The notes: generated from the sequence alone by a model not told the origin. 35,014 bases of DNA from Chloroflexota bacterium (GCA_031392845.1 JANMVQ010000124.1:1-35014); one strand, 5' to 3'; positions 5,984-33,950 are shown, counted from the first letter of the stretch. Numbers and translations are program-made.

Positions 5984-6076
5984 GATTTTGCTTTTATCAT
6001 ACGCGGAGCTTATTGCGGGGAATGGGCTACACACGAATTCATCGAAGCAATTGATATCGGCAATATGACATATAAC

Positions 6077-6103
6077 TTGCATTTGCATTTGCATTTGCAT
6101 TTG
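6077..6103. repeat. Hexanucleotide tandem repeat (TTGCAT)4 followed by TTG, in the intergenic region upstream of the GT-C-like membrane protein gene
   Basis: TTGCATTTGCATTTGCATTTGCATTTG lies 66 nt upstream of ATG 6169. Confidence 0.9.
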
Positions 6104-6168
6104 TAATTGAAGCAAATCAATACGGTCATAGGTGGCCCTAATGCATCATTCAACCTGAGTCGGATACT

Positions 6169-8878: not shown

Positions 8879-8922
8879 CTCTCAGCCTCTAGCAGTCAGC
8901 TCTTAGCAATTCGTTGAAAGTA

Positions 8923-8965
8923 CATGACTCGTGGCTCATGACTCACGAGTCATGAGTCAAGACTC
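8923..8965. repeat. Palindromic element: 11-bp inverted repeat CATGACTCGTG/CACGAGTCATG enclosing the 20-bp palindrome TCATGACTCACGAGTCATGA, followed by GAGTCAAGACTC
   Basis: Read directly from the sequence. It lies 9-50 nt upstream of the start of the 1353-aa secreted protein gene. Confidence 0.8.
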
Positions 8966-8973
8966 CTGAAACT

Positions 8974-13080: not shown

Positions 13081-13122
13081 CCCCAGACAACGTTGCATAA
13101 GCGTTGCTCTGGGTATTTTTTT
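13081..13122 (+). terminator. Rho-independent terminator after the 1353-aa secreted protein gene
   Basis: CCCCAGACAACG - loop TTGCATAAG - CGTTGCTCTGGG, followed by TATTTTTTT. Confidence 0.75.
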
Positions 13123-13308
13123 GGCAAATTGATAGCTCTTTTTGAGTCTTAACTCTATTACAATAATGCATGTCTGCTCCAAAATACCTAGGCGGTGCTA
13201 CATCTCAAGATAGAGCAAACTGAACGACAGATTGCTCAATGTTAGTAAACTGCAAAACCAAGATGTTTAGGAGTAGTTAAGACGCAATAAAATGATTGTG
13301 CATGAAAA

Positions 13309-15279: not shown

Positions 15280-15422
15280 TCTAAATAAAACCAACTAAGT
15301 CTTATGGTTTTGACATACTAAAACATAGTATTTCAGCGGCTTTTGCGCTGAATGAAAGCCGTTTTGACTTGTTGGTTCTATTTAGCATCAGAAACCAGCT
15401 TTTGCGGAAGTGTTGCAGTCAA

Positions 15423-15457
15423 GGGCCGGAGTTCGCTTTGAACTTCGGCCCTTTTTT
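15423..15457 (+). terminator. Rho-independent terminator after the second PKD protein gene
   Basis: GGGCCGGAGTTC - GCTTT - GAACTTCGGCCC, followed by TTTTTT. A weaker hairpin at ~15336-15365 precedes it. Confidence 0.85.
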
Positions 15458-15541
15458 GTTGTTCATCCTGCCGGTTTTCGTTAGTTTGTCACTCGCTGGA
15501 TTGCAACTTAGATGCTAGGATCAAACGAGGAGGTGTTGCTG

Positions 15542-16120: not shown

Positions 16121-18739
16121 TCACTCCTGCCGCACCGCGCTGGAAATGGCGATTTTGCCTAGGCGCAGCATGGGGTATATCCCGGCCAGCAACGCCGAGA
16201 TGAGCGCTACCAGCATGGCTTGGGCAAAAGTTTGCCACTCTAGGTTCAGCCGAATTGTCCAGCCAAATGAGCGCAAATTGATGATGTAGACCAGAATCAC
16301 GGCCAGCAACCAGCCGGTGGGCATCGAGAATAGCCCGGCGGTGCCGCCCATCAACCCAGTTTCAAGCAAGGTCATGCGCCAGAGTTGGCGCAGGGTCATG
16401 CCGTTGGCGCGCAACATGCCCAGCTCGCGGGTGCGCTCGATCTGCAACGCCATCAGCGCGCTGAGCACGCCGATAAAGGCGACAACTGTGGCCAGTAAAT
16501 TCAACGCGCCGGTGATGGCAAAGGTGCGATCAAACACCTGCAGTGCAGCGCTGCGCAAATCCCCGTTGGCGTTGATCAATAGGTTTTTGCCGCTAAATTG
16601 CTTGCGCAGATCGGCGACGTTTACCGCGTTAGGCGTATTTAGATAGAGCGCAACCTGCGACACCTGTCGGTCGTTGAAATAGCGCTCATAGTTGTCGCGC
16701 CGCATCAAAATCAAGCCTTGGTCCGAGGCATAGTCGTAATAGACCGCCTGTACGGTGAAGGTGCGTTCGCCCTGATCTGTCCGGATCGTGATGCGATTAT
16801 TTTGTTGGGTGATATCGTGTCTATTGGCATACGGCTCGGACACCCACACCTCGTCTTGGCCGCGCATGGCTGCCCAAGCCCCATTTGGATCGCGCGTAGT
16901 CCATACAAAGGTCTTGGCCGGGCGCTCACGGTTGGAATCGATGGTGAGAAGGCGGGCGGTTGCGGAGTTAGTAAGGTTCGGAAGGTTCTGAACGTTAGGA
17001 ACCTTACCAACTTTCTCAACATTAGGAACTTCCCCGACTTCAACAGGCAACGAACGTAACAAGGTGACTTCGCTGACGTCGGGAAGGGCGCGGAATTGGG
17101 CGATGGTTTGTGGATCGATGGTGGCAACGTTGTCGTTGACGCCAGACCTAATTGGGGCGATATAGATATCGGCCAGCAACGAGGCCTCTAGCCAGTTTTC
17201 GACGGTGTTTCTAAAGCTGCCAATCATGCTTTGCAGGCCAATGATTACGCTGACCGCGATCATGAGCGAGGCAATCGCAATGCCGGTGCGCGAGATGGAA
17301 TTGACGACCGAGCGGGTGGACATACGCCCGATGACGCCGACGAAGCGATTCATGATCGGGGTGAGGGCATCCATCAAGTAGACAGTGCCCAATGGCGAAA
17401 TAATGGCCAGCCCAACGATGACACCAAAGATGCCACCCAGATTGACCACAAGTTGTTTGGTGAGCAGCAACATGCCTCCGCCAATCGCAAACATGACGAT
17501 GCCAACTAGCGCAATCTTGGGCAGAATTTTGCGCACGCGTTGCTCCACAGCGCTGCGTTTCAGAGCAGTAACCGGTGGGATGCTGGTCGCCTCATACGCG
17601 GGCGCCAGCGCCGCCAACAGCGCCGCGCCTACGCCCAGCACAAAGCCTTTGATCAGAGTGAATGGCGCAACTTCAATGTCTTGCACATTGACCACGTAAT
17701 ACAAATCGTTAATCGTCTGGGTGACCAAGCGCACCGAACCGCGCCCCAGCAATAGTCCCAGCCCAACTCCCAACACCCCGCCGATAGCGGCCAGAATCGC
17801 AGTCTCGGTCAAAATCAGTTGAAAGATTTCGCGTTGGGTCACGCCCAGACAGCGCAGCGTGCCGATCATGGGGCGGCGCTGCACCACCGAAAACATGATG
17901 GTGTTGTAGATTAGAAACATGCCCACAACCAGCGCCAACAGGCTCAGCGCGGTGAGATTTAGCTGAAACGCATCGGTCAGGCTTTCGACACTTTGGCTGC
18001 GCGCTTGGGGCTTGATGATTTGCGCACCCAGAGGCAACGTTTGTTGGATGCGTGCCAGCATGTCACGGCCTGCAGTGGTGCGCTCATCGGCGATCAGGTC
18101 GATATGGCTGAGCTGGCCGCGCATCTGGAAGAGCTGTTGCGCGGCAGCCACGTCCATGATGGCCAGACCGTCAAGCGCCCGACGGCTGTTGGCGTCGGCG
18201 GGTTGCAGGATGCCGATGATGCGCACGGTTTGGGTGCGCTCACCGACGCGTAGGGTGAATTTGCTACCGGGTTTGAGTTGGTAGCGCTCGGCAGTGGTTG
18301 CGCCAATCAAAACAGCGTCTGGCTGGGTCAAAAATTGGGTGAGATCGACGTTGCCGGCTGCTGCGACGTTGCCTTCGCCTAAATAGTTACGAAAAGGAAA
18401 GTCCGCGAAGACATCGATGCCCAAAATCTGTAACGGCTGCTGATCAAGTTCGAGTGCAGTGGCATACGCAGCAATGATTGGGGCAGCGTTTGTAATGCCT
18501 AGATCGACCTTGATTTGGCGATAAACCGTATCGCTGATCGTGGCGCCACTGCCGACGATTTGATGGGTGGCTCGCCCGGCCACTGTCTCGGTGCTTAGAT
18601 TAAACGCCCGCGCTGCGCTGACGTTGGCCAGATCGATGGCGATAACGACTGCCACGCCGAGCGCTACGCCAATGATGCACAAAATCGACTGCAAAGGACG
18701 CCGCAACAGATAGCGCAACCCCGTTTTTAACAGACTCAT
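16121..18739 (-). CDS. ABC transporter permease with duplicated FtsX-like 4-TM domains (MacB/YbbP-like)
   Basis: 872 aa. Two FtsX-type TM bundles are each preceded by a large extracytoplasmic domain. A low-complexity insert, EVGEVPNVEKVGKVPNVQNLPNLTNS, is encoded by the repeat at 16966-17046. Confidence 0.85.
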   Translation of the reverse strand: MSLLKTGLRYLLRRPLQSILCIIGVALGVAVVIAIDLANVSAARAFNLSTETVAGRATHQIVGSGATISDTVYRQIKVDLGITNAAPIIAAYATALELDQQPLQILGIDVFADFPFRNYLGEGNVAAAGNVDLTQFLTQPDAVLIGATTAERYQLKPGSKFTLRVGERTQTVRIIGILQPADANSRRALDGLAIMDVAAAQQLFQMRGQLSHIDLIADERTTAGRDMLARIQQTLPLGAQIIKPQARSQSVESLTDAFQLNLTALSLLALVVGMFLIYNTIMFSVVQRRPMIGTLRCLGVTQREIFQLILTETAILAAIGGVLGVGLGLLLGRGSVRLVTQTINDLYYVVNVQDIEVAPFTLIKGFVLGVGAALLAALAPAYEATSIPPVTALKRSAVEQRVRKILPKIALVGIVMFAIGGGMLLLTKQLVVNLGGIFGVIVGLAIISPLGTVYLMDALTPIMNRFVGVIGRMSTRSVVNSISRTGIAIASLMIAVSVIIGLQSMIGSFRNTVENWLEASLLADIYIAPIRSGVNDNVATIDPQTIAQFRALPDVSEVTLLRSLPVEVGEVPNVEKVGKVPNVQNLPNLTNSATARLLTIDSNRERPAKTFVWTTRDPNGAWAAMRGQDEVWVSEPYANRHDITQQNNRITIRTDQGERTFTVQAVYYDYASDQGLILMRRDNYERYFNDRQVSQVALYLNTPNAVNVADLRKQFSGKNLLINANGDLRSAALQVFDRTFAITGALNLLATVVAFIGVLSALMALQIERTRELGMLRANGMTLRQLWRMTLLETGLMGGTAGLFSMPTGWLLAVILVYIINLRSFGWTIRLNLEWQTFAQAMLVALISALLAGIYPMLRLGKIAISSAVRQE
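16966..17046. repeat. 9-bp-periodic palindromic repeat element inserted in-frame in the FtsX permease gene
   Basis: AAGGTTCGG AAGGTTCTG AACGTTAGG AACCTTACC AACTTTCTC AACATTAGG AACTTCCCC GACTTCAAC. It encodes ...VPNVEKVGKVPNVQNLPNLTNS... Confidence 0.7.
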
Positions 18740-18840
18740 ATGTAGTTGAGGTTAATGCGCATACATGAGCGCGGTGTGAATCGGTAACGATAACCTGCAA
18801 TTCCAAAATCAAATTTTATGTCTCACTCCAACCCATTTTA

Positions 18841-18935
18841 GACGCGGATTTTTCGGATTCACGCGGATAGAAAAGAAATCTTTAATCCGCGTTGATCCGT
18901 TTAATCCGCGTTCTGTTCTGTTCTGTTCTATGTTG
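18841..18935. repeat. Structured repeat element, copy 1: long imperfect hairpin built from four ACGCGGAT/ATCCGCGT motifs plus a (TCTGT)4 pyrimidine tail
   Basis: Left arm GACGCGGATTTTTCGGATTCACGCGGAT and right arm ATCCGCGTTGATCCGTTTAATCCGCGT are reverse complements with about 4 mismatches, separated by a 16-nt loop. TCTGTTCTGTTCTGTTCTATG follows. Confidence 0.7.
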
Positions 18936-18951
18936 TGTTGATATCAGAACG

Positions 18952-19830
18952 TCATTGCACGAGTAGCGCAAACTGGGCCAATGTCGTGTCGCCGTGGATG
19001 CGCACCCGATCCCAGGTGAACGCACCACTCAGGCGGTGGGTTTTGCCATAGGCAGTGGTGACTGCGCCGAGCATGTATTCAGACTTTAACACCCGAATTA
19101 CATCGTCGTCGTAGCGTCCGAACGGATAGCAGAAGAAGCGTGGGCGTTTGCCGGTGTAGGCCTCGATCGCCTCCAGTGGGCCGAGCGTTTCCCAGATCAG
19201 CTTGGGCAAATCGCGGTTGCGCAGGTCTATGTGAGTGCGTGAATGCGATTCGATGTTCATGCCTGCACGCGATATCTCCTGAATCTGGTCCCAATGCATG
19301 TAATCCGGATTTGCGCTGCTGGCGAAGTCAGTCACCACAAAAAATGTGCCTACCATGCCATATTTGCGCAACAATGGAAAGGCGTGCTCATAAGCGTCGC
19401 GGTGGCCATCATCAAAGGTCAGAATAATGGACTTGGGTGGCAAAGGTGCACCACTGCTCAGATTGGCGTGAAGGTCATACAAACTGATGGTCTTGTAGCC
19501 GTTATCTGAGAGATACTTCAACTGCGCCTCAAAATTTTCGGGTGAGACGGATAAATCACGCCGGATACGGTCAGCATTGGCTGGGGGTGTCGAGATATAG
19601 TGATACATCAGGATCGGCACTTGTGCGATTCGTAGCGGATCTGCCGTAGGCGTGAGGGGTACGGGTGTGGGTAGCGGACTGGCGGTGGGGGTGGGGCGAG
19701 CAGCTTGCGCTCGGCACGTCACCCCAGCGATCAAAACAATACTGCACAAACAAGTGATACGCACAAAACGTGCAAACTGGGTCACAATTTTGCGGAAATG
19801 GGGTTCGGAGTTGTATTCAGAAACGGGCAT
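18952..19830 (-). CDS. Polysaccharide deacetylase, CE4 / NodB-homology domain, secreted
   Basis: LTFDDGHRDAYE and ESHSRTHIDL are NodB motifs. The N-terminus is hydrophobic with a Pro/Thr-rich linker. The start is uncertain; an internal GTG is an alternative. Confidence 0.8.
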   Translation of the reverse strand: MPVSEYNSEPHFRKIVTQFARFVRITCLCSIVLIAGVTCRAQAARPTPTASPLPTPVPLTPTADPLRIAQVPILMYHYISTPPANADRIRRDLSVSPENFEAQLKYLSDNGYKTISLYDLHANLSSGAPLPPKSIILTFDDGHRDAYEHAFPLLRKYGMVGTFFVVTDFASSANPDYMHWDQIQEISRAGMNIESHSRTHIDLRNRDLPKLIWETLGPLEAIEAYTGKRPRFFCYPFGRYDDDVIRVLKSEYMLGAVTTAYGKTHRLSGAFTWDRVRIHGDTTLAQFALLVQ

Positions 19831-22657: not shown

Positions 22658-22676
22658 GTCATGACTCACGAGTCAT
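22658..22676. repeat. Second copy of the TCATGACTCACGAGTCAT palindrome (18 of 20 positions) with a GACTCAAGACT motif about 90 nt downstream
   Basis: GTCATGACTCACGAGTCAT lies 16 nt after the lipoprotein stop, between convergent genes. TGACTCAAGACTTA is at 22751-22764. Confidence 0.75.
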
Positions 22677-22797
22677 AAATCATAAGTCCGGCGAACGATA
22701 CGTTAAGACGAAATGAACAAGTGTATTGAACGTATCTCTTTCCGGACTTTTGACTCAAGACTTATGGCAATGAATCGTGACTAATGACTCTTGATCC

Positions 22798-25976: not shown

Positions 25977-25985
25977 TAGAAAGTT

Positions 25986-26042
25986 AAAAGTGCAAAGTTG
26001 AAAGTGAGTGGCTTGTTTTTAACTTTCAACTTTGCACTTTTT
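25986..26042 (+). terminator. Hairpin with a 20-bp perfect AT-rich stem and T-run downstream of ettA (terminator or attenuator)
   Basis: AAAAGTGCAAAGTTGAAAGT - 16-nt loop - ACTTTCAACTTTGCACTTTT, followed by TT. The next ATG is 12 nt downstream. Confidence 0.55.
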
Positions 26043-26053
26043 ACTCATGAGAA

Positions 26054-26894: not shown

Positions 26895-29800
26895 TCAATC
26901 TTGCAAAATCGGCTGTAACCAACGCTCCGCTTCTTGCAGCGTCCAGCCTTTACGTTGTGAATAGTCTTTTAACTGATCACGCCCGATCTTGCCCACGCCA
27001 AAGTAGCGGGCTTGGGGATGGGCGAAGTACCAGCCACTGACGGACGCAGCAGGCAACATGGCGCAGCTCTCGGTCAACGTCATACCGATCTTTTCTTGCG
27101 CTTGTAACAGATCAAAGATCGTGCGCTTTTCAGTGTGATCTGGGCAGGCCGGGTAGCCCGGTGCTGGCCGAATGCCGCGATATTTCTCGGTGATTAAATC
27201 TGCGCTGCTTAGTTGCTCAGTCAACCCATAGCTCATGTCGTCGCGGGCGCGTTTGTGCAGATATTCAGCTCCGGCCTCGGCCAAGCGATCTGCTAGTGCC
27301 TCAACAAGGATCGCGCTGTAATCATCCCCAGCCTGTTTGTAACGCTCGACCATTTCCTTGGCCCCGTGAATGCCTACCGCAAACGCCCCGATGTAATCGA
27401 CAGTGCCGCTGTCTTTGGGGGCAATAAAATCCGCCAATGCCAGGTTCACTCTTACGGTTTGAAGGTTTGAAGGGTTTGGAAGGTTCGAAGGTTCAGAAAG
27501 TTTAGAACGTTCGGAACCTTCTGAACTTGACGAACCTTCCCAACCCCTCTTATTCATCTGTTGCCGCAGCGTATGGAAAGTGGCGCGCACTTGACTGCGG
27601 CTTTCATCGGCGTATACCTCGATATCGTCGCCGACGCTGTTGGCGGGGTAGAAACCGTAGATGGCTTTGGCGGCGAGTGTATTTGTCCCATTTGCTGATT
27701 GAGGGTTCGCAGTTTGACCCGGTTTGTGGGCGGCGACATGCGCGGTGGCGTTGGCTTGCACAAGGCGTTGCAGCATCGTCTGCGCATCCGCAAATAGCGC
27801 GCGTGCCTGTTCACCCACGACTGCATCATCAAGAATCTTCGGATAGCCACCCGCCAATTCCCACGCCTGAAAGAAGGGCGTCCAATCGATATAGTCGATC
27901 AGATCGCGTAAGGGCAAATCCTCGATCACCCGTGCGCCGACGAAGGATGGCTCGATAGCGTTCTCGCCACTCGATTCATCTGCGCTTAGGGCGTTAAAGC
28001 GGCGCTGACGGGCTTGCTCCAAACTTAGGAGCGGCTTGCGATCCGCGCGCTTGGCGAATTGCTCACGCAGATCGGATTGTTCGAGCGCATTCTTCTTGAC
28101 GAAGTCATCGTGCATTGCTTGGCTGAGCAAGCTGCCCACCACGCCAACCGCTCGGCTGGCATCCAGCACGTGCACCACTGGCTGCATGTAATTCGGCGCA
28201 ATCTTCAGCGCGGTATGAGCCTTGCTTGTTGTTGCGCCGCCAATCAGCAAGGGGATATTCATGCCTTCGCGGGCCATCTCTTTGGCCATGTGCGCCATCT
28301 CGTCCAGCGAGGGAGTGATCAGTCCACTCAAGCCAATCATGTCCGCACCTAACTCTTTGGCGGCTTTCAATATTTTGTCTGCTGGCACCATCACACCCAG
28401 ATCGATCACCTCGTAGTTATTGCAGCCCAGTACCACCCCGACGATGTTTTTGCCAATGTCATGCACATCGCCTTTGACCGTGGCGAGGACGATTTTGCCG
28501 GCGGAAGAAGACTGCTGGACGGCGGACGGCTCCAAGCTGGCCGCATCGCGCTCGGCCTGCATAAACGGTTCCAGCACCGCCACTGCGCGCTTCATCACCC
28601 GAGCGCTCTTGACCACCTGCGGCAAAAACATCTTGCCCGCGCCAAACAGATCGCCAACCACGCTCATGCCTTTCATCAGCGGCCCTTCGATTACATGCAA
28701 TGGACGACCATATTTCTGGCGCGCTTCTTCGACATCGACATCGATGAAATCGGTAATGCCTTTGACCAGCGCATGCTCCAACCTTTCCTCGATTGAGTTA
28801 TTCCGCCATTGTGCTACTTCTCTCTCGGTCAACCGTCGTCCGTTGTCCGTCGTCGGCTTAATCTCTTCCGCATAAGCCACCAACCGCTCGGTCGCATCCG
28901 GTCGCCGGTTCAACAGCACATCTTCTACACGTGTCAGTAGCGTTTTGTCGATCTCTTCGTAAACTTCCAGTTGCCCGGCATTCACAATGCCCATGTCTAG
29001 CCCGGCTCGAATGGCGTGATAGAGAAACGCACTGTGCATGGCCTCGCGCACCGGGTTGTTGCCACGAAACGAAAACGAGATGTTGCTCACCCCACCGCTG
29101 ACCTTTGCCCCCGGCAAATTTTGTTTGATCCAGCGGGTGGCCTCGATAAAGTTCAACGCATAGTTGTTGTGCTCTTCGATGCCGGTGCCCACGGTCAGAA
29201 TATTCGGGTCGAAGATGATGTCTTCCGGCGCAAACCCCACGTCGCTTACTAAAATATCATAGGCGCGTTTGCAGATGGCGATCTTGCGCTCGTAGGTGTC
29301 GGCCTGCCCGCTCTCGTCGAATGCCATCACTACTGTGCCTGCCCCGTGCCGCTTGATGATGGTGGCTTGCTCTTTGAACTTGGCCTCACCCTCTTTCAAG
29401 CTAATTGAATTGACGATGCACTTGCCCTGCACGCACTTCAGCCCAGCCTCGATCACCCCCCAGCGACTGCTGTCGATCATGACCGGCACTTTGGCGATAT
29501 CCGGCTCACTCATCGCCAAGTTCATGAAATGGGTCATGGCTTGTTCGCCGTCAATCAAACCTTCGTCAAAGTTCACATCGATAATATTGGCCCCATTCTC
29601 AATCTGTTGCTTTGCCACCCGCAGAGCTTCTTCGTACTGGCCCTCTTTAATCAGCTTGGCAAACCGGGGTGAGCCAGTCACGTTGGTGCGTTCGCCGATC
29701 ATCATGAATTGGGTGGCAGAGGGTTCGGAAGGTTTATAAGGTTGGGAAAGTTCAGAAGGTTCAGAACGTTGTGAACCTTCAGAACCTTCTAAACTTTCGG

Positions 29801-30884
29801 AACTTTCCGAACCGATCGCCAATCGCTCGAGCCCACTAAAGTAAGTCTTATGCACCGGCTTGGCTGGGGTGCGCACGCGGCCGGCATGCTGCACGACGTC
29901 GGCCAATTGGCTGATGTGTTCTGGGCCGGTGCCACAACAACCGCCCACAATATTGACCCAGCCATTTTGGGCAAACTCGCCAACCTGATCAGCAAACTGA
30001 TCGGGGGTCATATCGTAGCCGCCAAAGGCATTTGGCAGCCCGGCGTTGGGGTAACACGAGGTGAACACCTGACTGAGCTGGTTCATCTCCTCCATATACG
30101 GGCGCATCTCGTTTGGCCCCAGCGCGCAATTAATGCCCATGCTGATGAGCGGAGCGCGATGGATCGAGGCCCAATACGCATCCACGGTTTGGCCGCTCAG
30201 GGTGCGTCCGCTCTGGTCGGTGATGGTCACACTGGCCATCACTGGAACCCGCCGTGCGCCATCGGCAAACAGCTTCTGAATTGCGTAGAGCGCCGCCTTT
30301 TGATTGAGCGTGTCAAATGTGGTCTCGGGCAACAAGATATCGACGCCGCCCTCCAGCAATGCCGCGGCCTGGTCGTAATAGGCTTGCATAACCTGATCGA
30401 ATGTCACCGCTCGAAAGCTGGGATCGTTCACATTGGGGCTGAGCGAGAGGGTGCGGTTCATCGGCCCCAATGCGCCGGCCACGTAGCGCGGCTTGCGCGG
30501 GTCGCGTTGAGTGAAATCATCGGCGGCCTTGCGTGCGATCTGCGCTGCCCTGATGTTCATCTCGCGGATCAGCGCCGGGTCGGTCATATCAAAATCGGCC
30601 ATACTGATGGCCTGCGCATTGAACGTGTTAGTCTCGAGGATGTCCGCTCCCGCCTCGAGATACTCGCGATGAATCGCCTCAATCATGTCGGGCTGCACCA
30701 GATTCAAGGTCTCGTTATTGTTTTTAAGATCAATATGCCAGTTCGCAAAGCGCTCGCCCCGATAAGTCGCCTCATCCGGTTTATAGCGTTGGATCATGGT
30801 GCCCATTGCCCCATCCAGAATCAAGATGCGCTGCTTGAGTAGATCCGTAATGGGTGGCTTGTTTGGTTGGGTAAATTCGCTCAT
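26895..30884 (-). CDS. metH: Cobalamin-dependent methionine synthase MetH with two low-complexity inter-domain insertions
   Basis: Full five-module architecture: Hcy-binding (ILDGAMGT...GGCCGT), pterin-binding, B12-binding ([10 protein letters not shown]), and the AdoMet-activation domain. 1329 aa compared with ~1230 aa for canonical MetH. The extra residues are encoded by the repeats at 27448-27540 and 29715-29815. Confidence 0.95.
27448..27540. repeat. 9-bp-periodic palindromic repeat element inserted in-frame in metH (linker between the B12-binding and AdoMet-activation domains)
   Basis: GGTTTGAA GGTTTGAA GGGTTTGGAA GGTTCGAA GGTTCAGAAA GTTTAGAAC GTTCGGAAC CTTCTGAAC TTGACGAAC CTTCC. It encodes [26 protein letters not shown]. 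Confidence 0.75.
29715..29815. repeat. 9-bp-periodic palindromic repeat element inserted in-frame in metH (linker between the Hcy-binding and pterin-binding domains)
   Basis: GGGTTCGGAA GGTTTATAA GGTTGGGAAA GTTCAGAA GGTTCAGAAC GTTGTGAAC CTTCAGAAC CTTCTAAAC TTTCGGAAC TTTCCGAAC. It encodes [32 protein letters not shown]. Confidence 0.75.
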
Positions 30885-31022: not shown

Positions 31023-31313
31023 CTACTTGGAGACAGTGCGTGCTTTGCGACGCTTTTGTTTTGAGGTGATGTAGCTGGTCTTGCCCTCGCCAAAACGCAT
31101 CCGGCTTTCACGGATGGCATCGAGAATATCTTCCCTTGAAACGCTGACGTCAATACTGCCTACGTCAAGGGCCGAGCGCATTTCCGTTATTGGGCGCAGT
31201 GCAAACATTTGACCGTCGCGCCGTTTGATGACAACCTCGGTTCCTTGCGCTGCGGTATCAAGCAAGCTCGACAAGTTTTGGCGTGCTTCTGAGTACGTGT
31301 AGACAGTCATCAT
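31023..31313 (-). CDS. Type II antitoxin, Phd/YefM-like
   Basis: MMTVYTYSEARQNLSSLLDTAAQGTEVVIKRRDGQMFALRP matches the Phd/YefM N-terminal fold pattern. It overlaps the upstream PIN gene by 4 nt. Confidence 0.65.
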   Translation of the reverse strand: MMTVYTYSEARQNLSSLLDTAAQGTEVVIKRRDGQMFALRPITEMRSALDVGSIDVSVSREDILDAIRESRMRFGEGKTSYITSKQKRRKARTVSK

Positions 31314-31705
31314 TTGATCTCCAATACTTTTATTCTCAGATCAGTCGCGATTTTGCATAAAGCTTTGTCCAAAGATAAAACAGATGTTCGATAGTGTAAT
31401 GCACAGTATAGGATGTAGGCATCATAAGCATAGATTTTGTGTTGGACAGCCAAATTTACTGCTTCGGGGAGGTTGATTTCCAACTGGCGAATGGTCATTT
31501 TGCCAAAGAGATCAGATGCAGCAATTGCGTGACTATCAGATATGACTTTGCGTTTCACCAGCGCCGAAAGCGCGTTACCCACCTCCCATTTAATAGAGGC
31601 CGGTGCTATTAAATCCTGTTCTTGTGTATGTTCTAGAACGGCTGACTTAGATCGCTCATTCAAAACGACCGCCATGATCGCTGATGTATCAACTGTAATT
31701 GCCAT
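31310..31705 (-). CDS. PIN-domain ribonuclease toxin (VapC-like)
   Basis: MAITVDTSAIMAVVLNE carries the first acidic residue in the beta1 context. Other conserved positions are EQDLIAP, YDAYILYCA and a C-terminal D. The start is set at ATG 31705, with AAGGA upstream. The perfect palindrome TACAATTGTA lies 22-31 nt upstream. Confidence 0.7.
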   Translation of the reverse strand: MAITVDTSAIMAVVLNERSKSAVLEHTQEQDLIAPASIKWEVGNALSALVKRKVISDSHAIAASDLFGKMTIRQLEINLPEAVNLAVQHKIYAYDAYILYCALHYRTSVLSLDKALCKIATDLRIKVLEIK

Positions 31706-31726
31706 ATTTTCATCTGTCCTTGACCT

Positions 31727-31736
31727 GTACAATTGT
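31727..31736. promoter_or_regulatory. Perfect 10-bp palindrome TACAATTGTA upstream of the PIN-Phd operon; candidate autoregulatory operator, also -10-like
   Basis: Lies 22-31 nt upstream of PIN ATG 31705 on the minus strand. Confidence 0.4.
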
Positions 31737-31907
31737 ATCACTGCATTTGTGCTTGCTGTCAGCCAGCGTCAGCTACCTGACCTACAAATTCCCGATTCTG
31801 ACGACCCATTCGCGCTAAGCTCTCCGGCAGGGTAGAAGACTCCTGCCAGGGCCGCAGTGAAACGAAGGTGAAACCTGGCAGGTGTTTTCTACAACAAAAG
31901 GAGACCT

Positions 31908-33704: not shown

Positions 33705-33845
33705 GTTAGCAATCGCTGAAAAACAGTTACTACTCAGGCCATTTCTGATTCTTTTCCGCAAATCACGCGAATCAGCGCGAAAAAGATTAGCGAATATTCG
33801 TGTGATTCGCGGATTTCAATAGGTCTGAGTAGTTACGAAAAATAG

Positions 33846-33950
33846 GACGCGGAGTTTCAGGATGACAGGATCATTCAGGATAGTGACATCCCAAAAATCC
33901 TGTCATCCGGCAAATCCGCGTCTTATTCTTTGTCCTGTTCTTTATGGATA
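33846..33950. repeat. Structured repeat element, copy 2: hairpin GACGCGGAGTTTCAGGATGACAGGAT ... ATCCTGTCATCCGGCAAATCCGCGTC plus a CT-rich tail, in the 5' leader of the DRE-TIM gene
   Basis: The right arm and tail (CAAATCCGCGTCTTATTCTTTGTCCTGTTCTTTATGG) closely match copy 1 (TTAATCCGCGTTCTGTTCTGTTCTGTTCTATGTTG). The reverse complement of the right arm matches the left arm of copy 1. Confidence 0.65.

Follow-up and report, generated by a model that had tools for sequence, protein, structure and literature searches.

A gene-less palindromic repeat in a Chloroflexota spacer shares its arms with GxxExxY nuclease genes and suggests a previously undescribed selfish element

Judged by its logic, the closest analogue of the element reported here appears to be the system formed by repetitive extragenic palindromes (REPs), their hairpin-forming doublets (REPINs) and the REP-associated tyrosine transposases (RAYTs). 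REP sequences are typically specific to a species or genus. The stem of the classical E. coli REP (GCCGGATG...CATCCGGC) also contains CGGAT/ATCCG, motifs that recur below, and this may be a coincidence. Further systems that invite comparison are MITEs (miniature inverted-repeat transposable elements), homing endonuclease genes, the intervening sequences of 23S rRNA, in which a small open reading frame (ORF) sits in an extended stem-loop, and the short tandemly repeated repetitive (STRR) sequences of cyanobacteria, whose unit sequence is conserved across genera. STRRs are heptamers, and they have been reported inside a helix of cyanobacterial RNase P RNA. By definition, a REP is a palindrome of 20-40 nt that bears a conserved GTAG (or CGTC) tag on one side (PMC3733652), and some REP families were found to be species-specific in a REP survey. 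Here, we describe a hairpin at positions 18841-18935 of a 35,014-nucleotide stretch of DNA from a Chloroflexota bacterium (GCA_031392845.1 JANMVQ010000124.1:1-35014), the whole of which was analysed and is called the window below.

An initial annotation of the window had described this hairpin, hereafter copy 1, and had offered three readings of it: a set of operator half-sites, a small structured RNA, or a MITE-like repeat. The last of these has held up. Copy 1 is a gene-less ("solo") member of a widespread palindromic DNA repeat family that is dispersed in many copies per host genome and in many phyla. Arms of this family also enclose genes of GxxExxY proteins, far above chance and in many phyla, with the gene placed inside the palindrome's loop or, in fewer cases, flanked by two full hairpins. 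In place of a regulator site or a structured RNA, the shared arms suggest a selfish element that was previously undescribed, and copy 1 is, on balance, probably the gene-less, MITE- or REPIN-like derivative of a nuclease minicassette that has spread horizontally. Neither the repeat nor its link to the gene was found described in open-access papers and preprints.

Copy 1 and its repeat family

Copy 1 lies within the 212-nt spacer that separates the genes of a polysaccharide deacetylase and an FtsX/MacB permease, and the flanking ORFs agree with the location first given. The spacer and its surroundings consist of the following features.

16121-18739, minus strand: flanking ORF, FtsX/MacB_PCD permease
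18841-18868, plus strand: left arm of copy 1, G-ACGCGGAT-TTTT-CGGAT-TC-ACGCGGAT, three 9- to 10-nt units
18869-18884, strandless: loop of copy 1, A/T-rich AGAAAAGAAATCTTTA, 16 nt, taken from the fold
18885-18911, plus strand: right arm of copy 1, ATCCGCGT-TG-ATCCG-TTTA-ATCCGCGT, complement of the left arm
18910-18929, plus strand: (GTTCT)x4 microsatellite, found by TRF, ending in TCTATG
18952-19830, minus strand: flanking ORF, Polysacc_deac_1

The octamer ACGCGGAT starts at 18842 and 18861 on the plus strand and at 18885 and 18904 on the minus strand, and a partial CGGAT/ATCCG unit lies between the octamers of each pair. The four ACGCGGAT/ATCCGCGT octamers form a nested hairpin at 18842-18911; both their positions and the fold confirm the imperfect hairpin with two nested inverted pairs that had been proposed. 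Four of the five ACGCGGAT copies in the whole window belong to copy 1, compared with a shuffle mean of 1.7 per 35 kb. The arms, of 27 nt, are 81% complementary, and their GGAT cores are spaced 9-10 nt apart (ACGCGGAT / CGGAT / ACGCGGAT, with the complements on the other arm), forming a tandem array. Over 106 nt, copy 1 folds with -40.3 kcal/mol on the plus strand (z = -6.9) and -37.6 kcal/mol on the minus strand (z = -7.8), and 0 of 200 shuffles were as stable.

A second element about 15 kb away had been called closely related to copy 1. It is the following, more degenerate copy.

33841-33927, plus strand: copy 2, AATAGG-ACGCGGAG...(CAGGAT units)...ATCCGG-CAA-ATCCGCGT-CTTATT

Its arms (33841-33871 and 33897-33927) fold with -50.5 kcal/mol (z = -6.7), and the two genes that flank it, Band_7 and HMGL-like, are on the plus strand; relative to their neighbouring genes, the two copies are oppositely oriented. 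What they have in common is an outer ACGCGGA...TCCGCGT unit, one inner ATCCG unit and a CT-rich flank, and nothing more. The relation itself is real, but it is not a close one, as the inner units of copy 2 are CAGGAT and only its right arm fits the family profile described below.

From these common features, a search pattern was built (ACGCGGA, a gap of 35-65 nt, ATCCG, NNN and AATCCGCGT; 21 specified bases), for which we estimate that about 8 matches would arise by chance in 596 Gb when both strands and 31 gap lengths are allowed for. The scan covered one genome per species and returned at least 120 stretches. The initial annotation had named beforehand the lack of further copies and of conservation elsewhere as the outcome that would speak against a real element, and the scan clearly gave the opposite. 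The matches listed include, in Chloroflexota, Caldilineaceae, Anaerolineales and Chloroflexia; in Acidobacteriota, Pyrinomonadaceae, Blastocatellia, Vicinamibacterales and Chloracidobacterium; and in Bacteroidota, Saprospiraceae, Flavobacterium, Larkinella, Bacteroides and Parabacteroides. Planctomycetota, Verrucomicrobiota, Rhodothermales, Ignavibacteria, KSB1 and Gemmatimonadota are also among them, as are a cyanobacterium, several Proteobacteria, Clostridia and a Methanoperedens metagenome-assembled genome. Since isolate genomes occur among the matches (Flavobacterium hydatis DSM 2063, three Larkinella strains and Roseofilum), the family is no artefact of metagenome binning.

All of the matches listed are intergenic hairpins. 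Their arms consist of three to five tandem units with a strict 9-nt period (ACGCGGATT, NNGCGGATT, NNNCGGATT and others), the unit consensus is NNNC(G/A/T)GATT with ACGCGGAT as the outermost unit, and the information content falls off towards an A/T-rich loop. The palindrome is closed by a conserved flank in which AATAGA on the left pairs with TCTATT on the right. Neither the periodic units nor this flank had been demanded by the pattern. A profile built from 246 arms, with the window excluded, was then searched with nhmmer. It matched the left arm of copy 1 at 18840-18869 on the plus strand (E = 3.5e-3), the right arm at 18916-18883 on the minus strand (E = 2.4e-5) and, in copy 2, the right arm only, at 33927-33901 on the minus strand (E = 2e-3); it had no other match in the window or its relatives.

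The outer flanks of copy 2 (AATAGG...CTTATT) are of the AATAGA...TCTATT type, whereas those of copy 1 do not pair with each other: its left arm is preceded by TTTTAG, a type found in Bacteroides copies, and its right side reads TCTGT TCTGT TCTGT TCTAT. The pentamer tail had been given as (TCTGT)4, and TRF reports the same repeat in another register, as (GTTCT)x4.0 at 18910-18929 with 100% matches. To judge from the flank profile and from an alignment with other family members, this CT-rich tail can be read as the usual TCTAT(T) outer flank of the family, amplified locally by slippage, rather than as a separate module.

Some of the genomes among the matches listed hold five to seven exact-pattern matches, and the host loci contain about 27 further arm clusters per Mb. 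At one comparison locus, L117 (L-numbers such as L003 or L214 are the labels of these loci), two copies have identical arm asymmetries, which points to the copying of whole elements. Within one element, the variable unit positions of the two arms agree at 0.50, compared with 0.34 between elements (p = 1e-15), and the flanks agree at 0.68 within and 0.39 between elements; palindromy is thus maintained element by element. Direct repeats outside the palindrome, as would be left by target-site duplication, occur at chance level (2-mers in 6 of 123, 4-mers or longer in 0 of 123). Viral contigs in IMG/VR gave 2 matches only, so phages are no obvious vector.

The locus of copy 1 itself varies between relatives. 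Those permease homologues that have source names belong to Chloroflexota, near Thermoflexales and Candidatus Roseilinea, and the exact locus was matched only on short metagenome contigs. In strain L214, the flanking genes are 96.6-97.2% nucleotide-identical to those of the window and copy 1 is absent. The blastn junctions and junction alignments delimit the segment concerned.

18788-18966, strandless: strain-variable segment, with the whole element inside it

In L214, this segment is exchanged for 1101 nt with a PIN_3/HicB-like toxin-antitoxin pair and a hairpin of GCAAAG/GCAGAG units. The PIN_3 toxin and HicB-like antitoxin genes (L214 1944-2740) lie between the deacetylase and permease genes and are absent from the window; the GCAAAG/GCAGAG hairpin occupies the position of copy 1. 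The C-terminus of the deacetylase is also unlike, ending in …FALLVQ* in L214 and in …FAVLIQIK* in the window strain. At L004/L005, where the permease is 71% identical, the order of deacetylase and permease genes is kept and the spacer holds an unrelated hairpin with a 24-bp stem, while relatives at 83-85% identity have different upstream genes and different hairpins. Copy 1 was absent from the orthologous spacer in L214, L004/L005, L003, L008, L011 and L006, and conservation at the deacetylase-permease locus was rejected because the spacer is different in every relative compared. Copy 1 lies in a strain-variable spacer, which argues against an operator or a conserved cis-regulatory RNA for this operon, and we infer that it is not part of any conserved control of the deacetylase and permease genes.

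GxxExxY nuclease genes enclosed by family arms

The 764 ORFs of the 120 hairpin loci (8-kb blocks) were compared by all-against-all blastp. No gene was common to most loci and no transposase-like family recurred among these ORFs; besides one cluster, only generic families appeared (ABC ATPases, response regulators and short-chain dehydrogenases). The members of that cluster, of about 130 residues, are PF13366 PDDEXK_3 proteins, which correspond to TIGR04256 "GxxExxY protein" (E 1e-32 to 1e-38). A Y1 (RAYT) transposase gene flanked by the repeats was not seen in these 8-kb blocks, where PDDEXK_3 alone among the small genes is tied to the arms. The hairpin loci, 861 kb in all, hold only three PDDEXK_3 genes, and all of them touch family arms. 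At L108 and L123, the gene is flanked by a left arm and a right arm, with an additional nested outer arm pair at L108; at L083, a complete hairpin ends 5 nt upstream of the GxxExxY ATG. Other genes within long-range inverted arms were considered as cargo and rejected, as they are ordinary housekeeping genes (ETF-beta-like, methyltransferase-like, NuoI-like and YidD-like, judged by eye from the translations) between two separate hairpins.

In order to remove the ascertainment through hairpins, 80 further GxxExxY loci were taken from metagenomes by protein similarity alone. The sequences around the genes gave the following counts.

Inverted-repeat score of at least 18 between the 200 nt upstream and the 200 nt downstream: 43/76 GxxExxY loci, 0/198 shifted control intervals (Fisher p = 1e-29)
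Inverted-repeat score with z of at least 5 against shuffles: 60/79 GxxExxY loci, controls not applicable
Layout left arm / gene / right arm, as runs of CNGAT units: 36/75 GxxExxY loci, controls not scored
Layout hairpin / gene / hairpin: 10/75 GxxExxY loci, controls not scored
No units on either side: 8/75 GxxExxY loci, 77/97 controls

The arms of these cassettes consist of ACGC(G/A/T)GAT units, frequently with AATAGA/TCTATT ends. With a stricter profile based on ACGCGGAT, 14 left arms were found 20-100 nt upstream and 19 right arms 0-90 nt downstream of the genes, compared with 2 + 2 in the wrong orientation; the median spacers between arm and gene are 32 nt upstream and 22 nt downstream. In a complete Nodularia genome, a hairpin of GGATTA/AGATTA units stands on each side of the GxxExxY gene. 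Among the CNGAT units, CGGAT takes up a larger share as genomic G+C increases (rho = 0.31, p = 0.013). The position of the nuclease gene in gene-bearing relatives corresponds to that of the loop in copy 1, which is A/T-rich like the loops of the family.

Some cassettes carry tandem two- to threefold copies of a whole arm with its adjacent sequence, or nested outer pairs (L165 566-740, L169 1000-1150, L197 800-980, and L108 3449-3690 and 4264-4521). Such repeated or nested arms suggest recombination or re-insertion between copies.

The GxxExxY protein has about 125 residues, and its invariant residues include the GxxExxY motif and a catalytic D...(D/E)xK set. An AlphaFold model (pLDDT 86.9) predicts a minimal PD-(D/E)XK fold. 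A sequence search found no solved homologous structure, and the PADLOC defence families gave no match beyond a marginal one to Cas4b. The family is very large: all 8000 of the 8000 scored candidates had E <= 1e-5, many of them on contigs shorter than 2 kb. A survey of the nuclease superfamily listed the function of PF13366 as unknown and noted "multiple transfers, mixed clades" across divisions, that is, horizontal transfer (PMC3424549).

Comparison with described systems and competing explanations

By kind, the element is a dispersed, non-autonomous palindromic repeat. Like REPs and REPINs, its copies are short, imperfect intergenic palindromes, dispersed in tens to hundreds of copies without target-site duplication, and the non-autonomous copies are tied to one small enzyme gene that has the repeats on either side. 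It differs from them in several ways. There is no GTAG/CGTC tag, the flank profile being A-A-T-A-G-A; the arms are tandem arrays of 9-nt units, 25-45 nt long; the enzyme is a PD-(D/E)XK (GxxExxY) nuclease, usually inside the palindrome, rather than an HUH/Y1 transposase; the GxxExxY family has many, apparently horizontally acquired paralogues, whereas RAYT genes are single and vertically inherited; and the repeat sequence is common to several phyla. We know of no other dispersed palindromic repeat with one unit sequence across so many phyla.

With MITEs, the element shares terminal inverted repeats round a short non-coding core, an intergenic position and gene-less derivatives of an enzyme-bearing element; unlike MITEs, it has no target-site duplication, no DDE transposase parent was seen, and the whole element is one hairpin with internally repetitive termini. 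The intervening sequences of 23S rRNA likewise hold a small, selfish-looking ORF in the loop of a long stem, but in that case in rRNA helices, while the elements described here stand in ordinary intergenic DNA with PDDEXK_3 as the cargo. STRRs are similar in having short tandem units dispersed in intergenic regions, and different in their period (7 nt rather than 9), in lacking the palindromic arrangement and the many-phyla range, and in the nuclease-gene link, of which we know none for STRRs. Homing endonuclease genes, finally, resemble the cassettes in that a small nuclease gene lies within the sequence that it possibly recognises, spreads horizontally and leaves many degenerate or empty sites. 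Here, however, the presumed target is a multicopy palindrome rather than a unique site in a conserved gene, and there is no intron or intein.

The following course of events would account for these observations. The arms and the nuclease gene would form a small selfish cassette that moves horizontally between genomes, which would explain the identical octamer in unrelated phyla. The short hairpins would be non-autonomous derivatives of such cassettes, as MITEs are of insertion sequences and REPINs of RAYT genes, and their multiplication or maintenance would take place on DNA. Probably the nuclease would recognise or cleave the hairpin or cruciform once extruded, or else the copies would recombine with each other; no target duplication would be left. 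A more far-reaching proposal, which we put forward only tentatively, is that arms and GxxExxY gene together make up a previously unrecognised class of prokaryotic mobile element, a palindrome of tandem 9-nt units with a minimal PD-(D/E)XK nuclease in its loop, in which the nuclease recognises or cuts its own repeat when extruded as a hairpin or cruciform and thereby drives copying or gene conversion among dispersed copies, and which crosses phyla and leaves hundreds of gene-less hairpins per genome, including some in frame.

Several points weigh against the derivation of copy 1 from a nuclease cassette. Copy 1 has just 2.5 units per arm, mixed flanks and modest E-values in the profile search. 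Neither the window nor about 100 kb of sequence from its relatives yielded a GxxExxY gene. The difference to L214 is a replacement of the whole segment, including the toxin-antitoxin pair, and no clean insertion or excision of the hairpin. The fold matches of the nuclease model are weak (TM about 0.5; Cas4 SSO0001, lambda exonuclease, RecE and Hjc resolvase), the gene contexts of the family given below rest on a crude ORF caller, and the true abundance and taxonomic spread are known as lower bounds, from an arbitrary subset of the matches. The direction of descent, moreover, could be the reverse, with the hairpins primary and the nuclease gene invading their loops.

This last possibility survives best among the alternatives, although we regard it as rather unlikely. 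The hairpins would then be mobile through another enzyme, for example a transposase of the Y1/RAYT or some other type, or would be kept by the host, and the GxxExxY genes would be secondary invaders that home to the loops, as some insertion sequences target REPs. It fits the large excess of gene-less over gene-bearing hairpins (123 ascertained, compared with 3 in 861 kb), the ten loci of 75 whose gene is not inside a hairpin but has a complete one on each side, and the lack of target duplication, which is also a property of REP/IS200-type elements. A small nuclease could also be a homing enzyme, and the fold search did return I-Bth0305I, as a low-ranking and non-significant match (rank 42, E 0.22). 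However, the arms next to the gene keep their unit sequence and flanks across phyla, so that arms and gene appear to travel together; moreover, no transposase family recurs in the 120 hairpin loci, and the GTAG tag is absent.

A second alternative, which we consider decidedly unlikely, is that the hairpin serves mainly as RNA. It would be a terminator independent of a U-tract, an RNase III site or a 3' stabiliser that splits the expression of deacetylase and permease, and the family resemblance would reflect the reuse of a good hairpin. The sense-strand structure is indeed very stable (the minus-strand fold given above). Both flanking genes are read from the minus strand, so the sense transcript has its CT-rich tail upstream of the hairpin, in the order deacetylase stop, (AGAAC)n, hairpin, 100 nt and permease start; the hairpin begins about 40 nt past the deacetylase stop codon. 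At L004/L005, the orthologous spacer holds a different long hairpin in the same place, most gene-following spacers in the window carry some hairpin, and the flanks of the family consensus, A-rich on the 5' side and T-rich on the 3' side, are like those of bidirectional terminators. Nevertheless, the initial annotation was right that copy 1 is not an obvious terminator: it does not show the combination of a G+C-rich stem and a U-tract that marks an intrinsic (Rho-independent) terminator, the sense strand having CTAAAATGGG in place of a U-tract 3' of the hairpin, and no terminator-like or promoter-like site was called in 18600-19100. For other genes, this genome does have canonical terminators with T-tracts.

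Evidence from the whole family also speaks against an RNA role. Members occur in 50 tandem, 15 convergent and 17 divergent spacers, a mix that is near to random placement among spacers and is not the pattern of terminators; divergent spacers hold members as often as chance predicts. When the 50 tandem-context members were oriented by their flanking genes, the mismatches in sense-strand stems were 81 of the G·U type and 91 of the A·C type (p = 0.49), and this lack of a G·U excess gives no sign of selection on a sense-strand RNA helix. The covariance search proposed at the outset was carried out with Rfam; at the gathering threshold, neither the window nor any of 18 family loci had a match, and the spacer, searched by E-value, returned only spurious miRNA-precursor matches far below threshold. 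Together with the opposite orientations of the two copies, the absence of the element from the approximately 97% identical strain and a sequence conservation across phyla that pure structure does not explain, these results have not borne out the suggestion of a small structured RNA. Copy 1 may, once transcribed in the minus-strand message, act as a putative stable 3' hairpin for the deacetylase transcript, as a side effect; an RNA 3'-hairpin role in this operon cannot explain the family.

It is also conceivable, but very improbable in our view, that the hairpin was made on the spot by replication slippage and template switching, with the palindrome growing by tandem duplication and the likeness to the family arising by convergence. 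Slippage is active locally, as seen in the (GTTCT)x4 tail and in the nearby in-frame repeat of the permease gene, the length of which varies by 9 nt, and the lineage is rich in hairpins with tandem-unit arms of quite different sequence. Against this, the octamer, the 9-nt period, the inner ATCCG unit and the flank type fit a family whose members are far more numerous than chance would give, and the idiosyncratic arm asymmetries shared by copies within one genome (L117) speak for the copying of whole elements. The weakest proposal sees in the octamers the half-sites of an operator, at which a dimeric or oligomeric transcription factor would control the permease operon. It draws on the two inverted pairs that the four identical octamers form upstream of the permease start, but is hardly credible: the site is conserved in the spacer of neither the close nor the moderately distant relatives, no promoter-like site is nearby, the same arrays stand beside unrelated genes in many phyla, and copy 2 is oppositely oriented to its neighbours, whose functions are unrelated.

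Other hairpins of the lineage and implications

Apart from this family, the window and its relatives contain many hairpins with other tandem units (CATGACTC, AAAGT-type, GAAGGTTC and GCAAAG/GCAGAG), some of which recur across phyla in the fetched loci. Most gene-following spacers of the lineage hold long hairpins with arms of tandem short units, and the unit varies by locus; CATGACTC, AAAGT-type, TTGCAT, CGCGAAT, CACAAAG, GAGTTA, GCTAAG, GAGGTAA and GAAGGTTT were seen there. The Roseilinea outgroup locus L006 had no such tandem-unit hairpins. Hairpins of GCAAAG/GCAGAG units, 8-9 nt long, occur in Acidobacteriota, Chloroflexota, a Clostridia genome and Methanoperedens, and GATGA/GATGG, GAGATT and other unit types are also recurrent. 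These features, and a gene referred to below, are located as follows.

Tandem-unit hairpins in the window: 8920-8968, 22659-22797, 25982-26045, 6075-6112 and 33722-33838
Tandem-unit hairpins in relatives: L003 1591-1652, 6233-6326 and 22427-22554; L004 7812-7915 and 10295-10365
GCAAAG/GCAGAG hairpins: L019, L023, L044, L091, L105, L117, L131, L003 1591-1652 and L214 2920-2975
26895-30884, minus strand: metH

Three palindromes of the GAAGGTTC type, with a 9-nt period, lie in frame within genes, one in the permease gene (16946-17039) and two in metH (27452-27554 and 29711-29822). They consist of GAAGGTTCN units followed by their complement and encode low-complexity linkers, which read VPNVEKVGKVPNVQNLPNL in the permease and are 23 and 26 residues long in MetH. 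The permease repeat stands in a hypervariable loop that more distant orthologues lack, and it differs by one 9-nt unit from the repeat of a 99% identical homologue. These in-frame palindromes resemble the Rickettsia palindromic elements that are inserted in genes.

The 1-kb stretch between metH and Band_7 holds a PIN-domain toxin gene (31310-31741, minus strand) with an adjacent small ORF; on contigs of the same strain, the PIN gene is called beside a PhdYeFM antitoxin gene (L215 1821-2503). Both L215 and L216, which are independent Logan assemblies of this strain, have an end at the start of the hairpin-rich spacer downstream of Band_7, at about window position 33755, which fits an interruption of short-read assemblies by repeats; hairpins may contribute to such breaks in metagenome assemblies. 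Canonical intrinsic terminators, with G+C-rich stems and T-tracts and in some cases bidirectional, are found at 13085-13130 and 15420-15460 in the window, at L008 5105-5153 and at about L003 12810-12850. Their presence in the lineage sets the hairpins without T-tracts apart as a separate class.

For annotation, the practical consequence is that such hairpins should be checked before they are labelled as operators, small RNAs or terminators; they also mark strain-variable spacers. For the family, the octamer, the 9-nt period and the flanks are kept from Bacteroides to Chloroflexota, Acidobacteriota, cyanobacteria and a Methanoperedens metagenome genome, and the physical tie to GxxExxY/PDDEXK_3 genes gives a concrete idea of a substrate for these proteins, namely their own flanking hairpins as the putative target. 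If the arms and the gene did form a mobile element class of their own, this would give a function to the very large PF13366/TIGR04256 family, and other tandem-unit hairpins (GCAAAG/GCAGAG, GATGA, GAAGGTT and perhaps the cyanobacterial STRRs) could be the products of related cassettes.

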